From NCBI GenBank assembly GCA_050124835.1, contig JASFEM010000001.1, forward strand, positions 15,280-79,279: 64,000 nt of DNA, read 5' to 3'. Below, piece after piece: positions 6,045-35,297 of the stretch. Made by a program: the position numbers and the translations under genes. Below the pieces are notes generated by a model, which was given only the letters and a program-made list of their open reading frames with translations, made no database searches and had not been told where the DNA came from. Position 1 is the stretch's first letter, and every line of letters begins with the position of its first letter. This DNA comes from Syntrophobacterales bacterium (GTDB lineage: Bacteria > Desulfobacterota > Syntrophobacteria > BM002).

Positions 6045-7010
6045 ATGAGCAAAACCCAGAAAAAATGGATTTACTTCTTAGGACTGGCGGGGGTGGTGGG
6101 CCTGCTTCCCTTTGTGGTCAAAGGAGGCTATTACCTGCTGGTCTTAAATATCATTGCCATAAACGGCCTCGTTGTTCTTGGCTTGAACCTGCTCATCGGC
6201 TTTGCCGGTCAAATCTCCCTGGGCCATGCGGCTTTCTTTGGGATAGGGGCTTATTTGTCGGCCATCTCTACAGCCATGTACAACGCACCGCCTTGGCCAA
6301 CCCTACTGGCGGTAATGGTTTTCACTGCTGTGGTCGCATACGTACTGGGTATACCAACTCTGCGGCTCGAGGGCCACTACCTGGTCATGGCAACCCTGGG
6401 TTTCAATATCATTGTCTACATTCTCATGGTTCAGATGGAATATTGGACGGGCGGACCTTCTGGTTTCGCTGGCATTCCTCCCCTTAACCTGGGGCCTTTT
6501 CCTATCGAGGGTGACCTCCACTATTACTGGCTATTATGGTCTTTTTTCCTGGCAATTTTCTTTCTCTCACTCAACCTGGTTGATTCACGTGTGGGCCGCG
6601 CCCTTCGCGCCATTCATGAAAATGAACTTGTGGCTAACGCCATGGGAGTTAACACCGAAAGATACAAGGTGATCATTTTTGCGGTCAGTGCGGCTTATGC
6701 TTCTTTGGCCGGCAGCCTTTACGCGCACTACCTTTCGTTTATAAGTCCCAAGACATTTGATATCTTTTATTCCGTTCAGGTTGTCACTATGGTGGTGGTA
6801 GGAGGTATTGGAAATCTATGGGGAGGCCTGCTGGGCGCGGCTGTGCTTACGGCTTTGCCTGAAGTGCTTCATGCAATGCGTGATTATGCCCTTTTGCTTT
6901 ATGGCGTCATTTTGATGGGAGCGCTGGTGTTTTTCCCCGAGGGCTTGTTACCGGGTCTCATAAAGTTATGGTCTGATAAGCGAGCCGCAAAGCTCGGAGT
7001 CTCAGAGTAA
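6045..7010 (+). CDS. livM: Branched-chain amino acid ABC transporter permease LivM.
   Basis: 321-aa membrane ORF, LivM-like. Confidence 0.9.
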   Translation: MSKTQKKWIYFLGLAGVVGLLPFVVKGGYYLLVLNIIAINGLVVLGLNLLIGFAGQISLGHAAFFGIGAYLSAISTAMYNAPPWPTLLAVMVFTAVVAYVLGIPTLRLEGHYLVMATLGFNIIVYILMVQMEYWTGGPSGFAGIPPLNLGPFPIEGDLHYYWLLWSFFLAIFFLSLNLVDSRVGRALRAIHENELVANAMGVNTERYKVIIFAVSAAYASLAGSLYAHYLSFISPKTFDIFYSVQVVTMVVVGGIGNLWGGLLGAAVLTALPEVLHAMRDYALLLYGVILMGALVFFPEGLLPGLIKLWSDKRAAKLGVSE

Positions 7011-27102: not shown

Positions 27103-27124
27103 TTTGCGGAATAAACGCTTCCCT

Positions 27125-27823
27125 ATGATTCAGAAACCAATTCTTATTGTGGAAGACGATAAAAAGACCGCTTCACTAGTAGAACTCTATCTGCAGCGGG
27201 AAGGGTTCCAGACTGTTCTCGCTCTTGATGGTCGGGAAGCTCTGGAACTGGCTCGGCGTTACAACCCCATGCTTGTGGTTCTCGATCTTATGCTTCCCCT
27301 TGTCGATGGCTGGGAAGTCTGCCGGGAGCTCAGGAGTTGGTCGGATGTTCCTATCCTCATGCTCACCGCCAGAGGGGAAGAGGTGGACCGCATTTCGGGG
27401 CTGACATTGGGAGCTGATGATTATGTGGTGAAACCCTTCAGTCCACGGGAACTGGTGGCAAGGGTGAAAGCCATTCTCAGAAGAGTTCGTTCGGACACCA
27501 CTGCCAAAAGGACTGTCTGGTCACATAAAGATCTGGTTCTGGATCTGGATAAGCGCAAGGTGAGTTTAAGCGGGCGAGCAATTTCACTTACCGTTCATGA
27601 GTACAACCTCCTCAAAGCCTTGATGACCAGGCCCGGAAGGGTTTTTACTCGAGCAGAACTTCTGGACCGGCTTTATCCAGACGGTGAATCAGTAATAGAC
27701 CGCGTCATCGACGTCCATATTGGAAAGCTCAGGCAGAAGATCGAAAAGGACTCGTCGCGGCCTCGCCACATTCTCACGGTAAGAGGCATAGGATATCAGT
27801 TTGCCGAGGAGAGCGATTCATGA
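27125..27823 (+). CDS. OmpR-family response regulator (receiver plus winged helix).
   Basis: ILIVEDD, DLMLP and a trans_reg_C-like C-terminus. Confidence 0.9.
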   Translation: MIQKPILIVEDDKKTASLVELYLQREGFQTVLALDGREALELARRYNPMLVVLDLMLPLVDGWEVCRELRSWSDVPILMLTARGEEVDRISGLTLGADDYVVKPFSPRELVARVKAILRRVRSDTTAKRTVWSHKDLVLDLDKRKVSLSGRAISLTVHEYNLLKALMTRPGRVFTRAELLDRLYPDGESVIDRVIDVHIGKLRQKIEKDSSRPRHILTVRGIGYQFAEESDS

Positions 27824-27839
27824 ATGGGGGGATTGGGCC

Positions 27840-28925
27840 GTGACAAATCGAATCCTCTGGAAACTACTCGGGATTAATATCCTAGTCATTGGATTCGTTA
27901 TCATTATCGTATGGCTGGCGGTTGACTACCTCGCCGCCGGCTACTTCATGACTTTGATGGAGAAATACAATATCTCACCAACATCCAGCCACCAAATGTT
28001 CGTGAGCGCCGTTCACCGCTATTTGGTCTGGGCCAGTCTCGGCGCTCTTGTGCTGGCTGTTGGGTTCAGCTTCTTGCTCATGCGAAGAATTTTGCATCCT
28101 CTCACCCAGATGACTGAGATCACGAGCAAGATCGCATCTGGCAATTACTCAGCCAGCGTCCCTGTGAACTCTCAAGATGAAGTTGGCCGGTTGGCGCTTG
28201 CCTTTAACCGGATGGCTGAAAGTCTTCAGATGATTGAGCAACTACGGAAGACGATGATGATCGACGTGGCCCATGAGCTCAGGACTCCCCTAACCAACAT
28301 CAGAGGGTATCTCGAGGCCCTGACTGATGGCGTGGTCAGCCCCTCTGAGGAGACCTTCGAGTTGCTTCAGGAGGAGACCCTCCGGTTGGTACAATTAGTG
28401 GAAGATATCCTTCGGCTGGCCAAAGCTGACGCCGCCAAGGCAAGCCTTCGTCAAGTAGAGATCCATATTGTCGACCTGATTAAGCAAATGCTCGACTCGT
28501 TTCGTCCCCAACTCGAAGAAAAAGGGATCAGGCTGGAGACTCATTTTGCGAATGGCGAAAAAACCGTTTGGGCCGATCCCCACCATTTGTCGCAGGTGAT
28601 ACAAAATTTCCTGCAAAACTCCTGGCAGTATACTCCGTCAGGTGGAACGGTCACGGTCTCAACTGAGCTGATGCCAAGAGCGATCAAGGTTGTTTTTGCC
28701 AACACCGGTGGAGAAATAGCCGAAGATGATCTTCCCTATATATTCGAGCGTTTCTATCGAGGGGAAAAGTCTCGCTCGCGGGAGCACGGGGGTGCTGGCA
28801 TCGGTTTGGCCATAGTCAAAGAACTGGTCGAGGCCCACAGCGGCTCCGTCGGCGCTGAAATGCTCGCCGGTAGCATCCAGATCTGGTTTGAGCTTCCTTT
28901 GGACTCCCCGCGGAGGATAGATTGA
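27840..28925 (+). CDS. Sensor histidine kinase (TM-HAMP-HisKA-HATPase_c), partner of the OmpR-type regulator.
   Basis: HAMP, H-box VAHELRTPL and G-boxes. The GTG start at 27840 is inferred. The ORF track opens with TTG at 27801. Confidence 0.85.
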   Translation: MTNRILWKLLGINILVIGFVIIIVWLAVDYLAAGYFMTLMEKYNISPTSSHQMFVSAVHRYLVWASLGALVLAVGFSFLLMRRILHPLTQMTEITSKIASGNYSASVPVNSQDEVGRLALAFNRMAESLQMIEQLRKTMMIDVAHELRTPLTNIRGYLEALTDGVVSPSEETFELLQEETLRLVQLVEDILRLAKADAAKASLRQVEIHIVDLIKQMLDSFRPQLEEKGIRLETHFANGEKTVWADPHHLSQVIQNFLQNSWQYTPSGGTVTVSTELMPRAIKVVFANTGGEIAEDDLPYIFERFYRGEKSRSREHGGAGIGLAIVKELVEAHSGSVGAEMLAGSIQIWFELPLDSPRRID

Positions 28926-29107: not shown

Positions 29108-30298
29108 ATGAAACCGTTATATATGATAATCATCGCCCTGGTATTGGTCCTCTTGGTCTACCATCAGGTCACTGGAGAAATGGAAAAACAGATTCAGGAT
29201 AAACCCGAGAACACCAAGGAGGCATATTTTGCCGGCGGCTGTTTCTGGTGCACCGAAGCCGATTTTGAGAAAGTTGACGGCGTCATCGACGCTATCTCGG
29301 GTTACACTGGGGGCAACATTGCCAATCCCACCTACAAGCAGGTCTCCAAAGGCGGAACCGGGCACGTGGAGGCCGTGAAAGTGGTATACGACCCCACCAA
29401 GGTCACCTATGAGGAGTTGCTCGAGGTGTTCTGGATGCATGTGGATCCCACCGATGGAGACGGACAGTTTGTGGATCGCGGCTCCCAGTATCGTAGTGTT
29501 ATCTTTTACAGTAACGAACAAGAGCACCGTTTGGCTGAAGCCTCTAGGAAACGATTGGCGGCTTCGGGCCGCTTCGACAAGCCGATAGCGACCGATATCC
29601 TTCCGCTGGGCCCCTTTTACCCGGCTGAGGACTACCACCAGGATTACTACAAAAGAAATTCCATCCGCTACCGCTGGTACCGTCACGGCTCTGGCCGGGA
29701 CCAATTCCTGAAAAATGTATGGGAAGACAAGGAGTCAGATATGAAACCGCAAGCCAAAAAGGTTGAGATGGAAGATGAAATAAAGGAGAGTCGAATGAGC
29801 GCTGACAAGATAAAAGAAAAGACCGACGCCCGTATGGCATCTGACATGGAAGCCGGCCGGATGTACAACCGTCCCGGCGAGGAAGAGCTGCGTCGGCAAT
29901 TGACGCCCATGCAATACAAGGTCACCCAAAAAGACGGTACGGAGCCACCCTTCAAAAACGCTTACTGGAATAATCACGAGATGGGCATCTACGTGGACAT
30001 TGTCTCGGGGGAGCCTCTTTTCAGCTCGAAGGATAAGTTCGACTCTGGTACGGGCTGGCCCAGCTTCACCAAGCCTTTGGAGCCAGATAATATAGTGGAG
30101 AAGACGGACCGGAGTTTTTTTATGACTCGTATCGAGGTACGGAGCAAGCATGGCGACTCGCACCTCGGTCATGTATTCAACGACGGCCCCGAGCCCACGG
30201 GTCTGCGCTACTGCATCAACTCGGCCGCCCTAAGATTCATTCCCGAGTCGGACTTGGAAAAGGAAGGCTACGAAATATACCGGAAGCTGTTCGAGTGA
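29108..30298 (+). CDS. msrAB: Bifunctional peptide-methionine sulfoxide reductase MsrA/MsrB fusion with an N-terminal membrane anchor.
   Basis: MsrA GCFWC motif and MsrB motifs (CINSAAL, HLGHVF). Confidence 0.92.
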
Positions 30299-30318
30299 TG
30301 AGAACTGGGGAGTTTCGC

Positions 30319-30609
30319 ATGAAAGTATTTACGACAATACTCATGAGTTTTTTGCTTGTCGGATATATCTGGGCAGGGGCGGTTCATTCAAATGAGCCGT
30401 CCCTTGCCAAAATCGTCTTTTACGTTAGCTGATACGATGTGGGCAAATCAGCCCTGGAGGGGCTGAAAGGTATAAAAGAAGTAAGCAATGGTTTTCGCGG
30501 GTTCCGGGAGATCAACACCGTGACCTACGACCCGAGCGTAATCACGGCGGATGAGATGGTATCGGCCCTGGAAGCGGCCGGCACCTATCTCGGACTGGCG
30601 GAGGATTGA
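30319..30609 (+). other. Secreted HMA-fold-like small ORF interrupted by an in-frame TGA at 30430-30432. Either a pseudogene or UGA recoding (selenocysteine).
   Basis: Signal peptide MKVFTTILMSFLLVGYIWAGAVHS, then ...KIVFYVS-TGA-YDVGKSALEGLKGIKEV...TVTYDPSVITADEMVSALEAAG (HMA-like beta-alpha-beta-beta-alpha-beta pattern). A 7-bp hairpin TCAGCCC-TGGAG-GGGCTGA sits 15 nt downstream of the TGA. Confidence 0.4.
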
Positions 30610-30920: not shown

Positions 30921-31277
30921 GTGGCCAAATCACTCGTGTTGCATGAAGAATCTGATTGTCGTGAACTGATCAAGAGGGTCCTGCTAGAGAACGGCCATGA
31001 AGTGGTTGCTTTCGATGAGCCGGAAGAGGCCCTCGCCTGGACGCGTTCCAACCCCGTGGATCTGGCTATCGTTAGCTTGGAGTCGAGTGTAAGTCAGAAT
31101 GACGTTTGGCAGCAACTGAAACATTTTAACAAGAATCTCAAAATCCTTATCCTGACTAGATTCGCCGCTAAAGATTCGGCCAAGAGGGCGCTGGAAGAAG
31201 GCGCCGATGATTATCTCCTCAAGCCTATCGACATAGAGGCATTGGAAACCAAGGTAAAAAGCCTGAAAGAAGACTAA
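30921..31277 (+). CDS. Stand-alone CheY-like receiver with an atypical acidic pocket (DD replaced by HE). It has a GTG start.
   Basis: 118 aa. SLVLHEESD, VDLAIVS, ILILT and LLKP receiver landmarks. Paralog of the receiver at 39092-39457. Confidence 0.6.
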   Translation: MAKSLVLHEESDCRELIKRVLLENGHEVVAFDEPEEALAWTRSNPVDLAIVSLESSVSQNDVWQQLKHFNKNLKILILTRFAAKDSAKRALEEGADDYLLKPIDIEALETKVKSLKED

Positions 31278-31476
31278 TCTCGTTCGGTATTTGATGACTA
31301 GTACAGCTTGATATAGTTGTCTATTTAATCGTTGGTATCGTCTGCACTGAATTGGGTGCAATTTTAGCAATTAAATATTTGAAACTTAGTCAATGAAATC
31401 GAAAAAGTTTTATAGGAAGGAGGTGTCAGTCGTTCTTTTTTTGTTCCCATATTATAAAACAATGAAGGAGGAAACC

Positions 31477-33168
31477 GTGAAGAAAGTATCTTTCGTATTG
31501 ACCCTATTGATTGTCGGAATTGCCCTCATGGCTGCGGTTCCCAACAGCGCCCTGGCAGCAGCAAAAATCTCTGCTACCGAATATAAAGTTGGGGATACTG
31601 TCACTATAGAGGGAAGCATCGAGCCCGGCAAAGATCTCTACGTCACCGTAGTCTCGCATACCACGTTTGCACCTAAAGACACGGATGGTGTACACGAGGT
31701 GGCTCGGCTCAAGAAAGAGGCCCAAAAAAGAGGCTTCACCAATGAGACTAGGATACCTGTCTTTTATTACCTGCTAACCTCCAATCCCTCGCAATTTGGA
31801 AAGGTTACCAAGAAAAAATTTGGTGGGCCATCCTTCCTGCCGGGACTCTACAGCACAACCATGTTCAAGCTGGCAAAGTTTGACCAGCTTGATGCTGAGG
31901 CCAAGAATGTTTTGGGCCCCATCAAAAGCAAAGATGAGTGGAATTTCTTCAGATTCGCCCACGAATCTGCCTATGGCATCAACACCATTACCAAGGAAGG
32001 AGCCAAGAGAGGAAAAATCGTAATATTTGCCCGTAGTATCCTGGGAGATTACGGCACAAGCAAGAATTACTGGGACAAGGGCACGTCAGTTCAGTTGGAC
32101 AAGAGCACTGGAAAATTCACGGCCTCTTTCAAAACTTTCCGTCACACCCCGCCTAACAGCAAGTTTGACGTCTATGTGAACGGTGCCAAGGCCGGAACAT
32201 ATAACTTGCAGCCGAAAGGCTTCTGGCTGAGCAGGGGTTACCGTTACATGAACCCGATCATAATCACACTCGGCGCCATTGTTGTTGGTATTTTCTTCAC
32301 CATGATCGGCGCCGCCGGCGGCATGCTCATGGCGGCCTATCAGGTCATCGTTGTTCAGACCGCCGGTCCTATCGGCATTAACGCTGCCAACGTGCTGCGC
32401 TCATCGAACATAGCTTTGACCCTGTTCGCGCCACTGGGCGCTTTTTACCGGTACGCTGTGGTGGAGAAGCGGGTTGCCTGGCCTGTTGGTATCTCTTTTG
32501 GTGTGGGAATTTTGATCGGCTCCATCTGGTTGGGGAAATATGCAACTGCATACCTGCCCATGAAAAGCTATAAGGAGTGGTTGGCGGTTCTGGTTGTGAT
32601 CATGGGTATCAGAACCCTTTATGAGCTCACACCCAAGGTCATGGAAAAGAGGAAAGCCATCAAAGCGATGGTCAAAAAGTTTAATGAAGAGGTTGCACGG
32701 GCAAAAGCTGAAGGGCGCGCCGTTGAAATGGGTAAAATTGAAACGGTTAAGACCGGTCTTACTAGTTATCATTTCAAGTTTTGGGGTGAAGACTTCAGTA
32801 TTAACCCATTGCTCTTCGGTATCCTTGGCATAGTAATCGGGATAGTCTCTCGCTCGTTCGGTATCGGCGGCGGCTTCCTATTGGTGCCCGCCATGACCAC
32901 CCTGGGTGCTCTGCCCATGTACGTGGCCGTGCCTGTTGGGCTGATTGGTACTTCCTTCAGCAGCATCGGTTCCTTTATCGGCTACGCCATGAACAGGTAC
33001 TGGCCCGACTTGTGGATATTCATTGCCGTTATCATTGGTGGCTTTGTCGGGGGCATGCTTGGCAGTCGCTTCCAGAAGCTTTTCAGTGAGAGAGTCCTGA
33101 AGTGGGTGTTGGCAATTACCCTATTTTTCCTTTTCTTCCGCTTTTTCAAGATCGAAATCTGGATCTAG
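31477..33168 (+). CDS. TauE/SafE (DUF81) family membrane transporter fused to a roughly 270-aa N-terminal secreted domain of unknown function.
   Basis: An AAGGAGG RBS precedes the GTG start, giving MKKVSFVLTLLIVGIALMAAVPNSALA. An Lys-rich soluble domain is followed by two TauE-type 4-TM repeats with Gly-rich motifs (GAAGGMLM, GIGGGFLLVP). Confidence 0.7.
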   Translation: MKKVSFVLTLLIVGIALMAAVPNSALAAAKISATEYKVGDTVTIEGSIEPGKDLYVTVVSHTTFAPKDTDGVHEVARLKKEAQKRGFTNETRIPVFYYLLTSNPSQFGKVTKKKFGGPSFLPGLYSTTMFKLAKFDQLDAEAKNVLGPIKSKDEWNFFRFAHESAYGINTITKEGAKRGKIVIFARSILGDYGTSKNYWDKGTSVQLDKSTGKFTASFKTFRHTPPNSKFDVYVNGAKAGTYNLQPKGFWLSRGYRYMNPIIITLGAIVVGIFFTMIGAAGGMLMAAYQVIVVQTAGPIGINAANVLRSSNIALTLFAPLGAFYRYAVVEKRVAWPVGISFGVGILIGSIWLGKYATAYLPMKSYKEWLAVLVVIMGIRTLYELTPKVMEKRKAIKAMVKKFNEEVARAKAEGRAVEMGKIETVKTGLTSYHFKFWGEDFSINPLLFGILGIVIGIVSRSFGIGGGFLLVPAMTTLGALPMYVAVPVGLIGTSFSSIGSFIGYAMNRYWPDLWIFIAVIIGGFVGGMLGSRFQKLFSERVLKWVLAITLFFLFFRFFKIEIWI

Positions 33169-34544: not shown

Positions 34545-35297
34545 ATGTCCTGGTTCCTGCTCATGCCTATCATCTTTGCGAGCTCGCTTGTTCTCACCAT
34601 GGTGGGCCTAGGGGGTGGGCTCATCTTCTCCCCCCTATTTGTTCTCCTTTCCTTCCCGGTCTCCACGGCGGTCTCTGCCTCTCTTTTTCTGAACGGCATC
34701 GCTGCTCTGTCCGCGGCCATTACCTATTTTCGCAAGAAAATGATAGACGTGCAGGTTGGGGGGCCCCTCATCCTTGCCTCAGCCCTGGCCGCTCCTCTGG
34801 GTGCGCTTACCACCTCCAGGGTAAATATCAAGATCTTTACTGCCATTCTGGCAGGGGTGATCTTTCTGGCTTCTCTGCGCATGCTCTTCTCAGGCAAAAT
34901 AGAGGCTGCGACTGAGGAGGTCGGTACCAGGAGGAGGGTCATTGGCGGTGGTGCCATTGGCTTGGTTATTGGCTTCATGGCAGGGCTTCTAGGAATCGGT
35001 GGTGGGGTTTTCATTGTCCCCTTACTGATTTACATCTTGAGGGTACCCACAAAGATCGCGGCCGCCACCTCCATCTTTATCGTGGTCTTTTCCTCATGTA
35101 GCGGCTTCATTACCCATGCGTCTTTGGCTAGGGCCGACTGGAATTTCATCTTGGTGGCTGCCTGCTTCTCCTTTGCCGGCGGTCAGGTGGGCTCGCGAAT
35201 CATGGCAGAGAAGCTCAAAGGAAGGACCGTGCGGAGGCTCTTCGGAATTGTGCTCTTGGCTTTTGCCTTTAAGCTGATTCAGCGGGTGTGGTGGTAA
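34545..35297 (+). CDS. TauE/SafE (DUF81) family membrane transporter (sulfite/anion exporter family).
   Basis: 250 aa with duplicated 4-TM repeats carrying GLGGGLIFSPL and GIGGGVFIVPLL motifs. Confidence 0.85.
   Translation: MSWFLLMPIIFASSLVLTMVGLGGGLIFSPLFVLLSFPVSTAVSASLFLNGIAALSAAITYFRKKMIDVQVGGPLILASALAAPLGALTTSRVNIKIFTAILAGVIFLASLRMLFSGKIEAATEEVGTRRRVIGGGAIGLVIGFMAGLLGIGGGVFIVPLLIYILRVPTKIAAATSIFIVVFSSCSGFITHASLARADWNFILVAACFSFAGGQVGSRIMAEKLKGRTVRRLFGIVLLAFAFKLIQRVWW

Follow-up and report, generated by a model that had tools for sequence, protein, structure and literature searches.

A gene with an in-frame TGA beside msrAB represents an unrecognised bacterial selenoprotein family with a predicted HMA/MsrA-like ferredoxin fold

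Introduction

Does a TGA codon in the middle of a short reading frame mark a dead gene, or a codon for selenocysteine (Sec)? The question is raised by a 96-codon open reading frame (ORF) at positions 30319 to 30609 of a stretch of 64,000 nucleotides (nt) from a Syntrophobacterales bacterium (contig JASFEM010000001.1; the whole stretch is hereafter referred to as the window). The frame lies directly downstream of a fused methionine sulfoxide reductase (Msr) gene, msrAB, and is interrupted by a TGA at codon 38. We refer to this candidate selenoprotein gene, and to the family of its homologues, as X. A preliminary description of the locus, made from its sequence, had left the choice between a selenoprotein gene and a pseudogene open. 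Here, we report that X is almost certainly a functional selenoprotein gene, with genuine Sec decoding of UGA38 as judged from comparative sequence analysis, and that its family is an unrecognised family of bacterial selenoproteins with a canonical selenocysteine insertion sequence (SECIS). The account that best explains the observations as a whole, and which we consider reasonably probable, is that of a Sec-decoded, exported protein, the redox-active selenol of which would serve in the defence against methionine oxidation.

The in-frame TGA of X and its counterparts in other genomes

The features of X are as follows (coordinates are those of the window; + is its forward strand):

30319..30609, +, candidate selenoprotein gene X, 96 codons, with Sec at codon 38 and the final stop TGA at 30607-30609
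30430..30432, +, UGA read as Sec38, aligned with TGA or Cys codons in homologues
30448..30466, +, SECIS hairpin UCAGCCC-UGGAG-GGGCUGA, 7 bp with a 5-nt loop containing GG
30319..30390, +, predicted Sec-type signal peptide MKVFTTILMSFLLVGYIWAGAVHS, with a putative cleavage site after AVHS
30307..30312, +, putative Shine-Dalgarno-like GGGGAG, 6 nt 5' of the ATG of X

Translation from the ATG at 30319 gives MKVFTTILMSFLLVGYIWAGAVHSNEPSLAKIVFYVS up to the in-frame TGA, and YDVGKSALEGLKGIKEVSNGFRGFREINTVTYDPSVITADEMVSALEAAGTYLGLAED from there to the final stop; the protein contains no Cys at all. The frame, the position of the TGA and the lack of a Cys to replace it had been given correctly in the preliminary description, as had the 7-bp hairpin with a GG loop that begins 15 nt past the TGA and the place of X directly after msrAB, which ends 20 nt upstream. 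In close homologues of X the GGGGAG stretch 5' of the start translates as 'GEF', and promoter and terminator scans found nothing above shuffled sequences.

For the codon census, homologues at 85 loci were compared, which represent some 76 genomes at the species level in Desulfobacterota and Nitrospirota. Of these loci, 80 came from a scan with a single genome for each species, which drew on Desulfobacterales, Syntrophobacterales, Syntrophales, Thermodesulfovibrionales and other Nitrospirota, on two symbionts of Olavius and on a bin with the label Hyphomicrobiales. TGA stands at the aligned position in 80 of the 85 loci, TGT in three, TGC in one and CGA in one; neither TAA nor TAG occurs there in any of the 85. 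The four Cys codons belong to loci L002, L068, L073 and L076. Some genomes carry two copies of the family (L008 and L011 in CP070843.1; L043 and L051; L073 and L083; L076 and L078), and two metagenome-assembled genomes of Nitrospirota (L073/L083 and L076/L078) have a Sec paralogue as well as a Cys paralogue. Neither Sec nor Cys is present in L071 (CGA at 6084), in protein record P0122 (Arg) or in P0126 (Ser). The CGA of L071 is one step away from TGA, an Ala-to-Val change (GCC to GTC) breaks the core of its hairpin, and the locus looks like a recently inactivated or repurposed copy.

At the protein level, a search returned 65 homologues of X, either full length or cut at the TGA. About 45 of them are fragments of 55-56 residues that begin just past the TGA because the gene callers stopped there; about 19 are full length with a Trp in the TGA column, and two are full length with a Cys. 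In the Trp record P0004 (locus L001) the DNA codon is TGA; for P0010 (L085) the DNA does not translate to the record under the standard code (table 11), and its Trp is therefore taken to be a TGA too. Trp in place of TGA is a feature of many ENA/NCBI metagenome records (P0001-P0011, P0014, P0016-P0019, P0066-P0077 and others, including those of loci L001 and L085), presumably from short contigs called under genetic code 4 or 25, and false full-length 'W' proteins thereby enter public protein collections. When 1.84 billion representative proteins were searched with a HMMER profile, no more than 219 relatives emerged, which indicates a tight family; among the fetched homologues that reach the aligned column, 38 have a TGA-derived W and 34 a Cys.

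The hairpin as a SECIS element

In bacteria, Sec is inserted when SelB carrying Sec-tRNA(Sec) binds a hairpin in the mRNA as the ribosome reaches the UGA. The bacterial SECIS (bSECIS) model describes a stem of 4-16 bp and a loop of 3-9 nt with a G in its first two positions, lying 16-37 nt from the UGA and with a minimum free energy of -7.5 kcal/mol or lower (PMC13188914). The hairpin of X falls within this model on all four counts (7 bp; loop UGGAG; 22 nt between UGA and loop; -12.3 kcal/mol for the hairpin alone), in agreement with the SECIS compatibility noted in the preliminary description, and so do the hairpins of 59 of the 75 distinct family sequences. The 66-nt region around the hairpin has a z-score of -2.5 relative to dinucleotide-shuffled versions, of which 4 in 200 were equally stable, and a mere 0.5% of synonymous recodings of the hairpin peptide (15 codons) fold as well as the natural sequence (-14.0 versus -6.9 kcal/mol).

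Across the 75 distinct TGA sequences the core of the hairpin, GCCC-UGGAN-GGGC, is invariant. The core encodes Ala-Leu-Glu/Asp-Gly-Leu, and conservation of the protein alone would be a conceivable explanation; it is insufficient, however, because the synonymous sites are frozen as well. In the TGA genes the Ala codon of the hairpin is GCC in 78 of 78 cases (43-50 of 68 at other conserved Ala residues), the Leu codon is CTG in 78 of 78 (25 of 78 at another invariant Leu) and the Gly codon is GGG in 68 of 78 (5-9 of 78 at other invariant Gly residues). In the four Cys genes the equivalent residues are encoded by GCT/GCA, CTT/CTA and GGC, and the hairpin is gone. When genes were recoded, the natural TGA genes stood at -13.3 kcal/mol versus -8.8 kcal/mol for their recoded versions, whereas the Cys genes gave a z-score near 0; the hairpin of L071 is weakened. 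The cells of the helix are paired in 85% of cases, as opposed to 22-53% after a shift of the partner by 1-3 columns, and the outer pairs covary, with alternation between UA, GC and UG and between CG, AU and GC. De novo folding of the 75-sequence alignment with RNAalifold yielded a trivial 3-bp helix only, and the named hairpin was therefore tested directly; a search of the window with Rfam at gathering thresholds found one tRNA and no SECIS match. As far as these sequence comparisons tell, the hairpin is kept by selection at the RNA level only where the codon is TGA.

Readings without recoding, and the evidence for Sec competence

If the TGA were not recoded, X would be a pseudogene or the product of a sequencing error, or would make two products (a 37-residue peptide and a 56-residue 'CopZ' from a GTG at 30439, as gene callers annotate it), or would read TGA as Trp under an alternative genetic code. 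The public annotation of the 56-residue fragment as 'copper chaperone CopZ' or 'hypothetical protein' fits the second of these and the several records that translate the codon as W fit the third, while the CGA of L071, together with its weakened hairpin, is what decay would look like. None of this accounts for a stop at the identical codon in 80 loci from about 76 species that is always TGA, for an upstream half with a conserved reading frame that contributes both the signal peptide and strand 1, for homologues with Cys in place of the stop, or for a hairpin selected in the TGA forms only. A non-standard code is countered by the stop codons of msrAB (30296-30298) and of X itself (30607-30609), both of which are TGA with no hairpin downstream: since both genes end in this way, TGA is otherwise a stop here and the code is standard, with TGA serving within about 300 nt both as stop and as Sec. 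We conclude from the comparative data, i.e., the codon census and the SECIS tests, that the pseudogene, the separate 56-residue CopZ and the TGA = Trp readings are to be rejected, and that an absence of recoding in any form is hardly credible. Of the two possibilities raised in the preliminary description it is thus the selenoprotein that stands, with TGA in 80 and Cys in four of the 85 orthologous loci and a downstream hairpin conserved in the TGA genes, and the pseudogene that falls.

Several observations weigh on the other side. selA, selB, selC and selD were not found in the 64-kb window, and a scan of the window for a second gene with an in-frame TGA gave no convincing selenoprotein. The sole tRNA found in the window is a tRNA-Gly, and a tRNA scan of 46 related loci found no tRNA-Sec and one tmRNA only; we infer the Sec competence of the source genome from its relatives. 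Sixteen of the 75 hairpins fail a strict test for a contiguous stem, nine hairpins have a C-U mismatch, and covariation is modest, because the core is invariant.

In favour of Sec decoding, genes for other known selenoproteins occur on two related contigs. Locus L082 encodes, at about 2115-2516 on the minus strand, an MsrA with TGA in place of the codon for the catalytic Cys (ATFALG-U-FWG), followed by a hairpin, ACTCCCA-GTT-TGGGAGT. In L080 a YHS-domain protein (6292-6753), directly downstream of the X homologue, has a TGA within KYAPQYGGY-U-AYAV, at a position that aligns with a Cys in L066.

A predicted exported domain between HMA and MsrA

The fold was assessed on an AlphaFold2 model of P0012, a Cys homologue 66% identical to X, the mature domain of which is predicted with a pLDDT above 93. 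The model bears out the beta-alpha-beta-beta-alpha-beta pattern first read from the sequence, with strand 30-36, helix 39-47, strands 52-60 and 63-70, helix 77-87 and strand 90-94, and places Cys38 between strand 1 and helix 1. The signal segment is modelled as a low-confidence N-terminal helix apart from the domain. A signal peptide had also been proposed for X in the preliminary description, and inspection by eye agrees, the n-h-c pattern being common to all full-length homologues.

When the model was compared with the Protein Data Bank (PDB) using Foldseek, the top match was MerP (1osd_A; target-normalised TM-score 0.81, root-mean-square deviation (rmsd) 1.6 A), followed by HMA domains of copper ATPases and CopZ; MsrA chains were also listed (6yev_D; 79 columns, rmsd 2.2 A). 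Profile-profile comparison aligned X with HMA/CopZ at a probability of 95% (E 3.9e-8, 49 columns), with the Sec on the second Cys of CxxC, and at 93.5% (E 2.3e-7) with an MsrA profile made from the linked genes, with the Sec on the catalytic Cys of GCFW; the latter alignment runs over 55 columns with one gap, starting at strand 1. HMA and MsrA aligned with each other at 39% only (E 3.2e-4, 19 columns). In a BLASTP alignment of X with the neighbouring MsrAB, Glu64 falls on the Glu of the MsrA GHxE motif, which we take to be the catalytic Glu. A partial duplication of the neighbouring msrA was considered as the origin of X and rejected, the identity amounting to only 12 of 32 residues over one block.

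At the level of family models, Pfam gave nothing above threshold for X (HMA_PCA1, 14.6 bits versus a threshold of 24.5). None of 33 family members matched PF00403 at E <= 0.01, and none matched Pfam MsrA; TIGR00401 matched X below threshold (E = 0.094). The curated families NF041115 and NF041383 were matched weakly by 31 and 30 of the 33 members, respectively, with best E-values of about 1e-7 and scores of 23-30 bits (29.5 bits for X on NF041115) against cut-offs of 95 and 275 bits. The TsoY model NF047643, with UxxV where X has U-Y-D-V, matched neither X (E <= 10) nor the 33 members (E <= 0.01). X has the motif [FY]V-x-U-[YF]-D-V-G with its single Sec/Cys, and no GMxCxxC. Of the hallmarks of MerP it has the signal peptide and the fold, not the CxxC or the mer genes, and the full catalytic domain of MsrA (Cys-Phe-Trp, Tyr loop, Glu, C-terminal half with Tyr) is absent. 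Residues invariant in the family are Tyr39/Asp40, Gly42, Lys43, Glu64, Asn66, Tyr70/Asp71 and Thr89/Tyr90; from the 4-1-3-2 antiparallel sheet topology of the model, Tyr39-Asp40, Arg/Lys63-Glu64 and Thr89-Tyr90 should lie near the Sec.

The product of X is, then, very likely an exported HMA/MsrA-like domain, and on present sequence comparisons the family is a ferredoxin fold of HMA size, as far in sequence from HMA as from the catalytic half of MsrA. The HMA type assigned to X in the preliminary description holds at the level of the fold, with MerP as the top PDB match, and not at the level of the family, since no HMA model passed and MsrA is equally similar.

X belongs to a module of methionine sulfoxide reductase genes

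Upstream of X, the window contains the following genes:

27104..27823, +, OmpR-type response regulator (PF00072 and PF00486), linked to X across loci
27801..28925, +, HAMP-HisKA histidine kinase (PF00672, PF00512 and PF02518)
29108..30298, +, fused msrA-msrB (PF01625 and PF01641), ending 20 nt upstream of X

The MsrAB of the window has an N-terminal hydrophobic anchor, an MsrA domain with CFWC and a 1-Cys MsrB domain with a Thr at the position of the resolving Cys; the MsrB domain is devoid of the zinc CxxC pairs, the whole protein has only three Cys, and the linker (residues ~205-255) is rich in Met, Lys, Glu and Asp. The kinase, with its topology read from the sequence, has about 33 residues between two membrane helices, Met/His-rich (FMTLMEKYNISPTSSHQMF), and may either perceive its signal inside the membrane or depend on an accessory protein.

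Neighbours were counted among the genes within 4.5 kb of X in about 82 loci. An MsrA or MsrB is found in about 60 of them and a histidine kinase in 52; Tat-signal PF00174 molybdoenzymes (MsrP/YedY-like) are found in 13, YHS-domain proteins in 8, a VTT/DedA membrane protein with a pyridine-nucleotide-disulfide oxidoreductase in 8-9, extremely Met-rich secreted proteins in 6 and Thioredoxin-2 in 5. A P-type ATPase and canonical HMA motifs were each found near X in 1 of 86 loci. The linked MsrA reads CFWC in 53 of 53 cases, and in 60 of 60 linked MsrB a Thr takes the place of the resolving Cys. The genes come in several orders: response regulator, kinase, MsrAB and X in the window and in most Desulfobacterota; MsrAB and X followed by a convergent kinase-regulator pair; and, in Nitrospirota, response regulator, kinase, X and MsrAB, an order that includes all three Cys-form loci found in genomes. 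We are highly confident that X is a fixed member of an Msr module that is shuffled in order and conserved in content.

Some modules carry further genes. The Met-rich secreted proteins (L051, 3750-4316; L035, 7040-7501; L052, 6643-7146; L064, 7032-7493) consist mostly of Met with Lys, Asp, Glu and Gly (MMEKGGMMKDGMMGKDMMMEKGQMMMDKG...), have no Pfam match, and resemble the hypochlorite-scavenging MrpX or a Cu/Ag sponge; in Azospira, the Met-rich peptide MrpX works together with MsrP (PMC4436054). Nitrospirota modules (L043, L056, L062, L063, L064, L070 and L075; e.g., L062, 2621-4838) combine VTT/DedA (PF09335) with a MerA/Lpd-like oxidoreductase with CxxxxC, a pair that could, to judge by the domains, provide a route for reducing power across the membrane. 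Downstream of X, the window encodes a protein with a lone receiver domain and two membrane proteins of the TauE/SafE family (PF01925) (ORFs 30921-31277, 31393-33168 and 34545-35297), one of the latter with a 290-residue extracytoplasmic N-terminal extension; this arrangement next to X is common only to the closest relatives, L006 and L007.

A possible role for the selenol of X

How would such a protein act? By the established bacterial mechanism, the SelB-bound hairpin would let the ribosome insert Sec at UGA38. The 96-residue precursor would then pass through the Sec pathway and be cleaved after residue 24 or so, leaving a mature protein of about 72 residues, a ferredoxin-like domain which, on the model of the Cys homologue, would carry its single Sec at the N-terminus of helix 1. 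In the most likely form of the proposal, the selenol would act on the linked Msr enzymes from outside, as the nucleophile that resolves or reduces them; in an alternative form, X would be a fast oxidant-reactive selenol. That the selenol is the redox centre of a periplasmic methionine-oxidation defence has, on the sequence evidence, an even chance or slightly better, and for the chemistry of the Sec we lean somewhat towards redox rather than metal. This preference is due to the linkage of X to all three kinds of Msr and not to metal transporters, to the lack of a resolving Cys in the linked MsrB, to the alignment of the Sec and Glu64 with residues of the MsrA active-site motifs, and to the combination of a single chalcogen ligand with polar residues predicted near the Sec.

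The competing view, unlikely in our estimate if well worth weighing, is that the Sec is a soft-metal ligand and that X works in the manner of MerP or CopZ, chaperoning or buffering Cu(I), Ag(I), Hg(II) or Cd(II) in the periplasm; it would bind its metal through a Sec-bridged dimer or through the Sec together with Asp, Glu or Tyr. Co-expression with Msr would then reflect the oxidation of periplasmic Met ligands under metal stress, as in E. coli, where MsrPQ is induced by copper and repairs the CusF chaperone (PMC9302797). Much of what speaks for a metal role counts at the same time against a redox one. MerP, which heads a PDB ranking continued by ATPase HMA domains and CopZ, binds metal; the HMA profile aligns at 95% with the Sec on the second Cys of CxxC; NF041115, the nearest curated family, is annotated 'metal-binding (seleno)protein' and is weakly matched by 31 of 33 members. 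YHS domains are putative metal binders, and the YHS neighbours (8 loci) and Met-rich secreted proteins (6 loci) fit a Cu/Ag response, as does the short Met/His-rich outer loop of the kinase. A redox role is further weakened by the fact that a lone Sec cannot deliver two electrons by itself and needs a dimer, a thiol or sulfide, and no re-reducing partner (DsbD, CcdA) is conserved in the X module. Against a metal role, X has a single Sec/Cys, its mature domain offers no other conserved soft ligand (Cys, Met or His), GMxCxxC is absent and no HMA model is passed; metal pumps are nearly missing from the 86 loci, the conserved partners being MsrA, MsrB and MsrP-like enzymes, and the invariant polar residues predicted near the Sec suggest an active site over a chaperone loop.

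Sec reacts faster with oxidants than Cys does, and X might instead be an accessory periplasmic redox sensor, the oxidised selenol of which switches the adjacent kinase and thereby induces msrAB. We think this quite improbable. The kinase does expose only about 33 residues outside the membrane, and in 52 of 82 loci, with gene order varying, X is accompanied by two-component genes; yet many X loci adjoin an Msr gene with no kinase nearby (e.g., L016, L020, L027, L043, L053 and L054), X mostly follows msrAB on the same strand, which is how an effector gene would be placed, and nothing points to a contact between X and the kinase.

The redox role that we favour can also be cast in a bolder form, which we put forward tentatively and regard as rather unlikely to hold in full: X would be a miniature, Sec-dependent relative of the MsrA catalytic core and the missing periplasmic redox partner of exported Msr enzymes in strict anaerobes. 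The targets of its selenol would be the sulfenic acid on the 1-Cys MsrB or the disulfide in the CFWC of MsrA, or else sulfoxides and oxidants, with which it would react directly. If so, X would replace the DsbD/CcdA-thioredoxin relay used elsewhere, and the family would be a sequence link between the HMA and MsrA branches of the ferredoxin fold.

Novelty and significance of the family

A 2026 inventory lists 119 families of prokaryotic selenoproteins and contains no exported HMA-like family with a single Sec (PMC13188914). Tested against the NCBIfam and Pfam hidden Markov models cited there, X had no family match (the families of Haft & Tolstoy, 2025, were compared via their NCBIfam models only), and searches of the literature, including the main selenoproteome papers, turned up no mention of a single-Sec HMA-like protein beside msrAB. 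What is unusual in X is its fixed place in periplasmic Msr modules and its position in sequence between HMA and MsrA. In databases, JGI names a near-identical fragment "copper chaperone CopZ", and elsewhere X appears as a hypothetical protein of 55-56 residues or as a false full-length Trp form. The family occurs in Desulfobacterota and Nitrospirota, in no fewer than about 76 genomes at the species level, and such mis-annotation would spread into surveys of metal homeostasis and of the genetic code. X ties the use of selenium to extracytoplasmic methionine-sulfoxide repair in strict anaerobes, and is a concrete, testable candidate for the source of reducing power of exported MsrA and MsrB in these organisms. 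Its equal similarity to HMA and to the catalytic half of MsrA offers a handle on how these folds relate.

Comparison with known systems

X shares with the HMA proteins MerP and CopZ (PF00403; PDB 1osd, 1afi and 2qif) the fold, a length of about 70 residues, a functional Cys or Sec at the start of helix 1 and the C-terminal pattern '...V.YDP..I...E....aG.Y', and with MerP also the signal peptide. Unlike them, it has a single Sec/Cys, on the second Cys of the HMA motif, and a loop between strand 1 and helix 1 that is 3 residues shorter, and it is never found in a mer or cop operon. With MsrA (PF01625), which has known Sec forms (GUFW), the alignment spans strand 1, the Sec, helix 1 and strand 2, and the block 'GxxGxxE..V.YDP..[IV][ST]..E[LM]' is common to both; X differs from MsrA in the absence of a 17-residue loop, presumably the carrier of the active-site Tyr, in having no C-terminal half, in a Tyr-Asp that replaces the Phe-Trp pocket, and in a mature length of 72 residues, under half that of an MsrA.

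The nearest curated sequence relatives of X are NF041115, the 'UxxU metal-binding (seleno)protein', and the HMA-like module of NF041383, the 'VPGUxxT thioredoxin-like (seleno)protein, type 2', both of which were first seen in Olavius symbionts (PMC13188914, Table 1). Like these, X is a selenoprotein of sulfate-reducer lineages; unlike them, it carries a single Sec in place of UxxU, lacks a thioredoxin domain, possesses a signal peptide and lies in another gene context.

As a system, the X module resembles E. coli HprSR-MsrPQ, Azospira MrpX-MsrP and streptococcal MsrAB with thioredoxin-like lipoproteins in joining an envelope two-component system to an exported Msr (PMC4436054, PMC9302797, PMC9805139, PMC7034828). 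The likeness to MrpX-MsrP extends, at some loci, to a Met-rich secreted protein and MsrP-like PF00174 enzymes (PMC4436054), and HprSR-MsrPQ also acts anaerobically and under copper stress (PMC9805139, PMC9302797). In contrast to those systems, neither the DsbD/CcdA-thioredoxin relay nor MsrQ is conserved in X modules, the hosts of which are strict anaerobes, and to the repair genes the module adds a component found in none of them, a small ferredoxin-fold protein with a single Sec or Cys.

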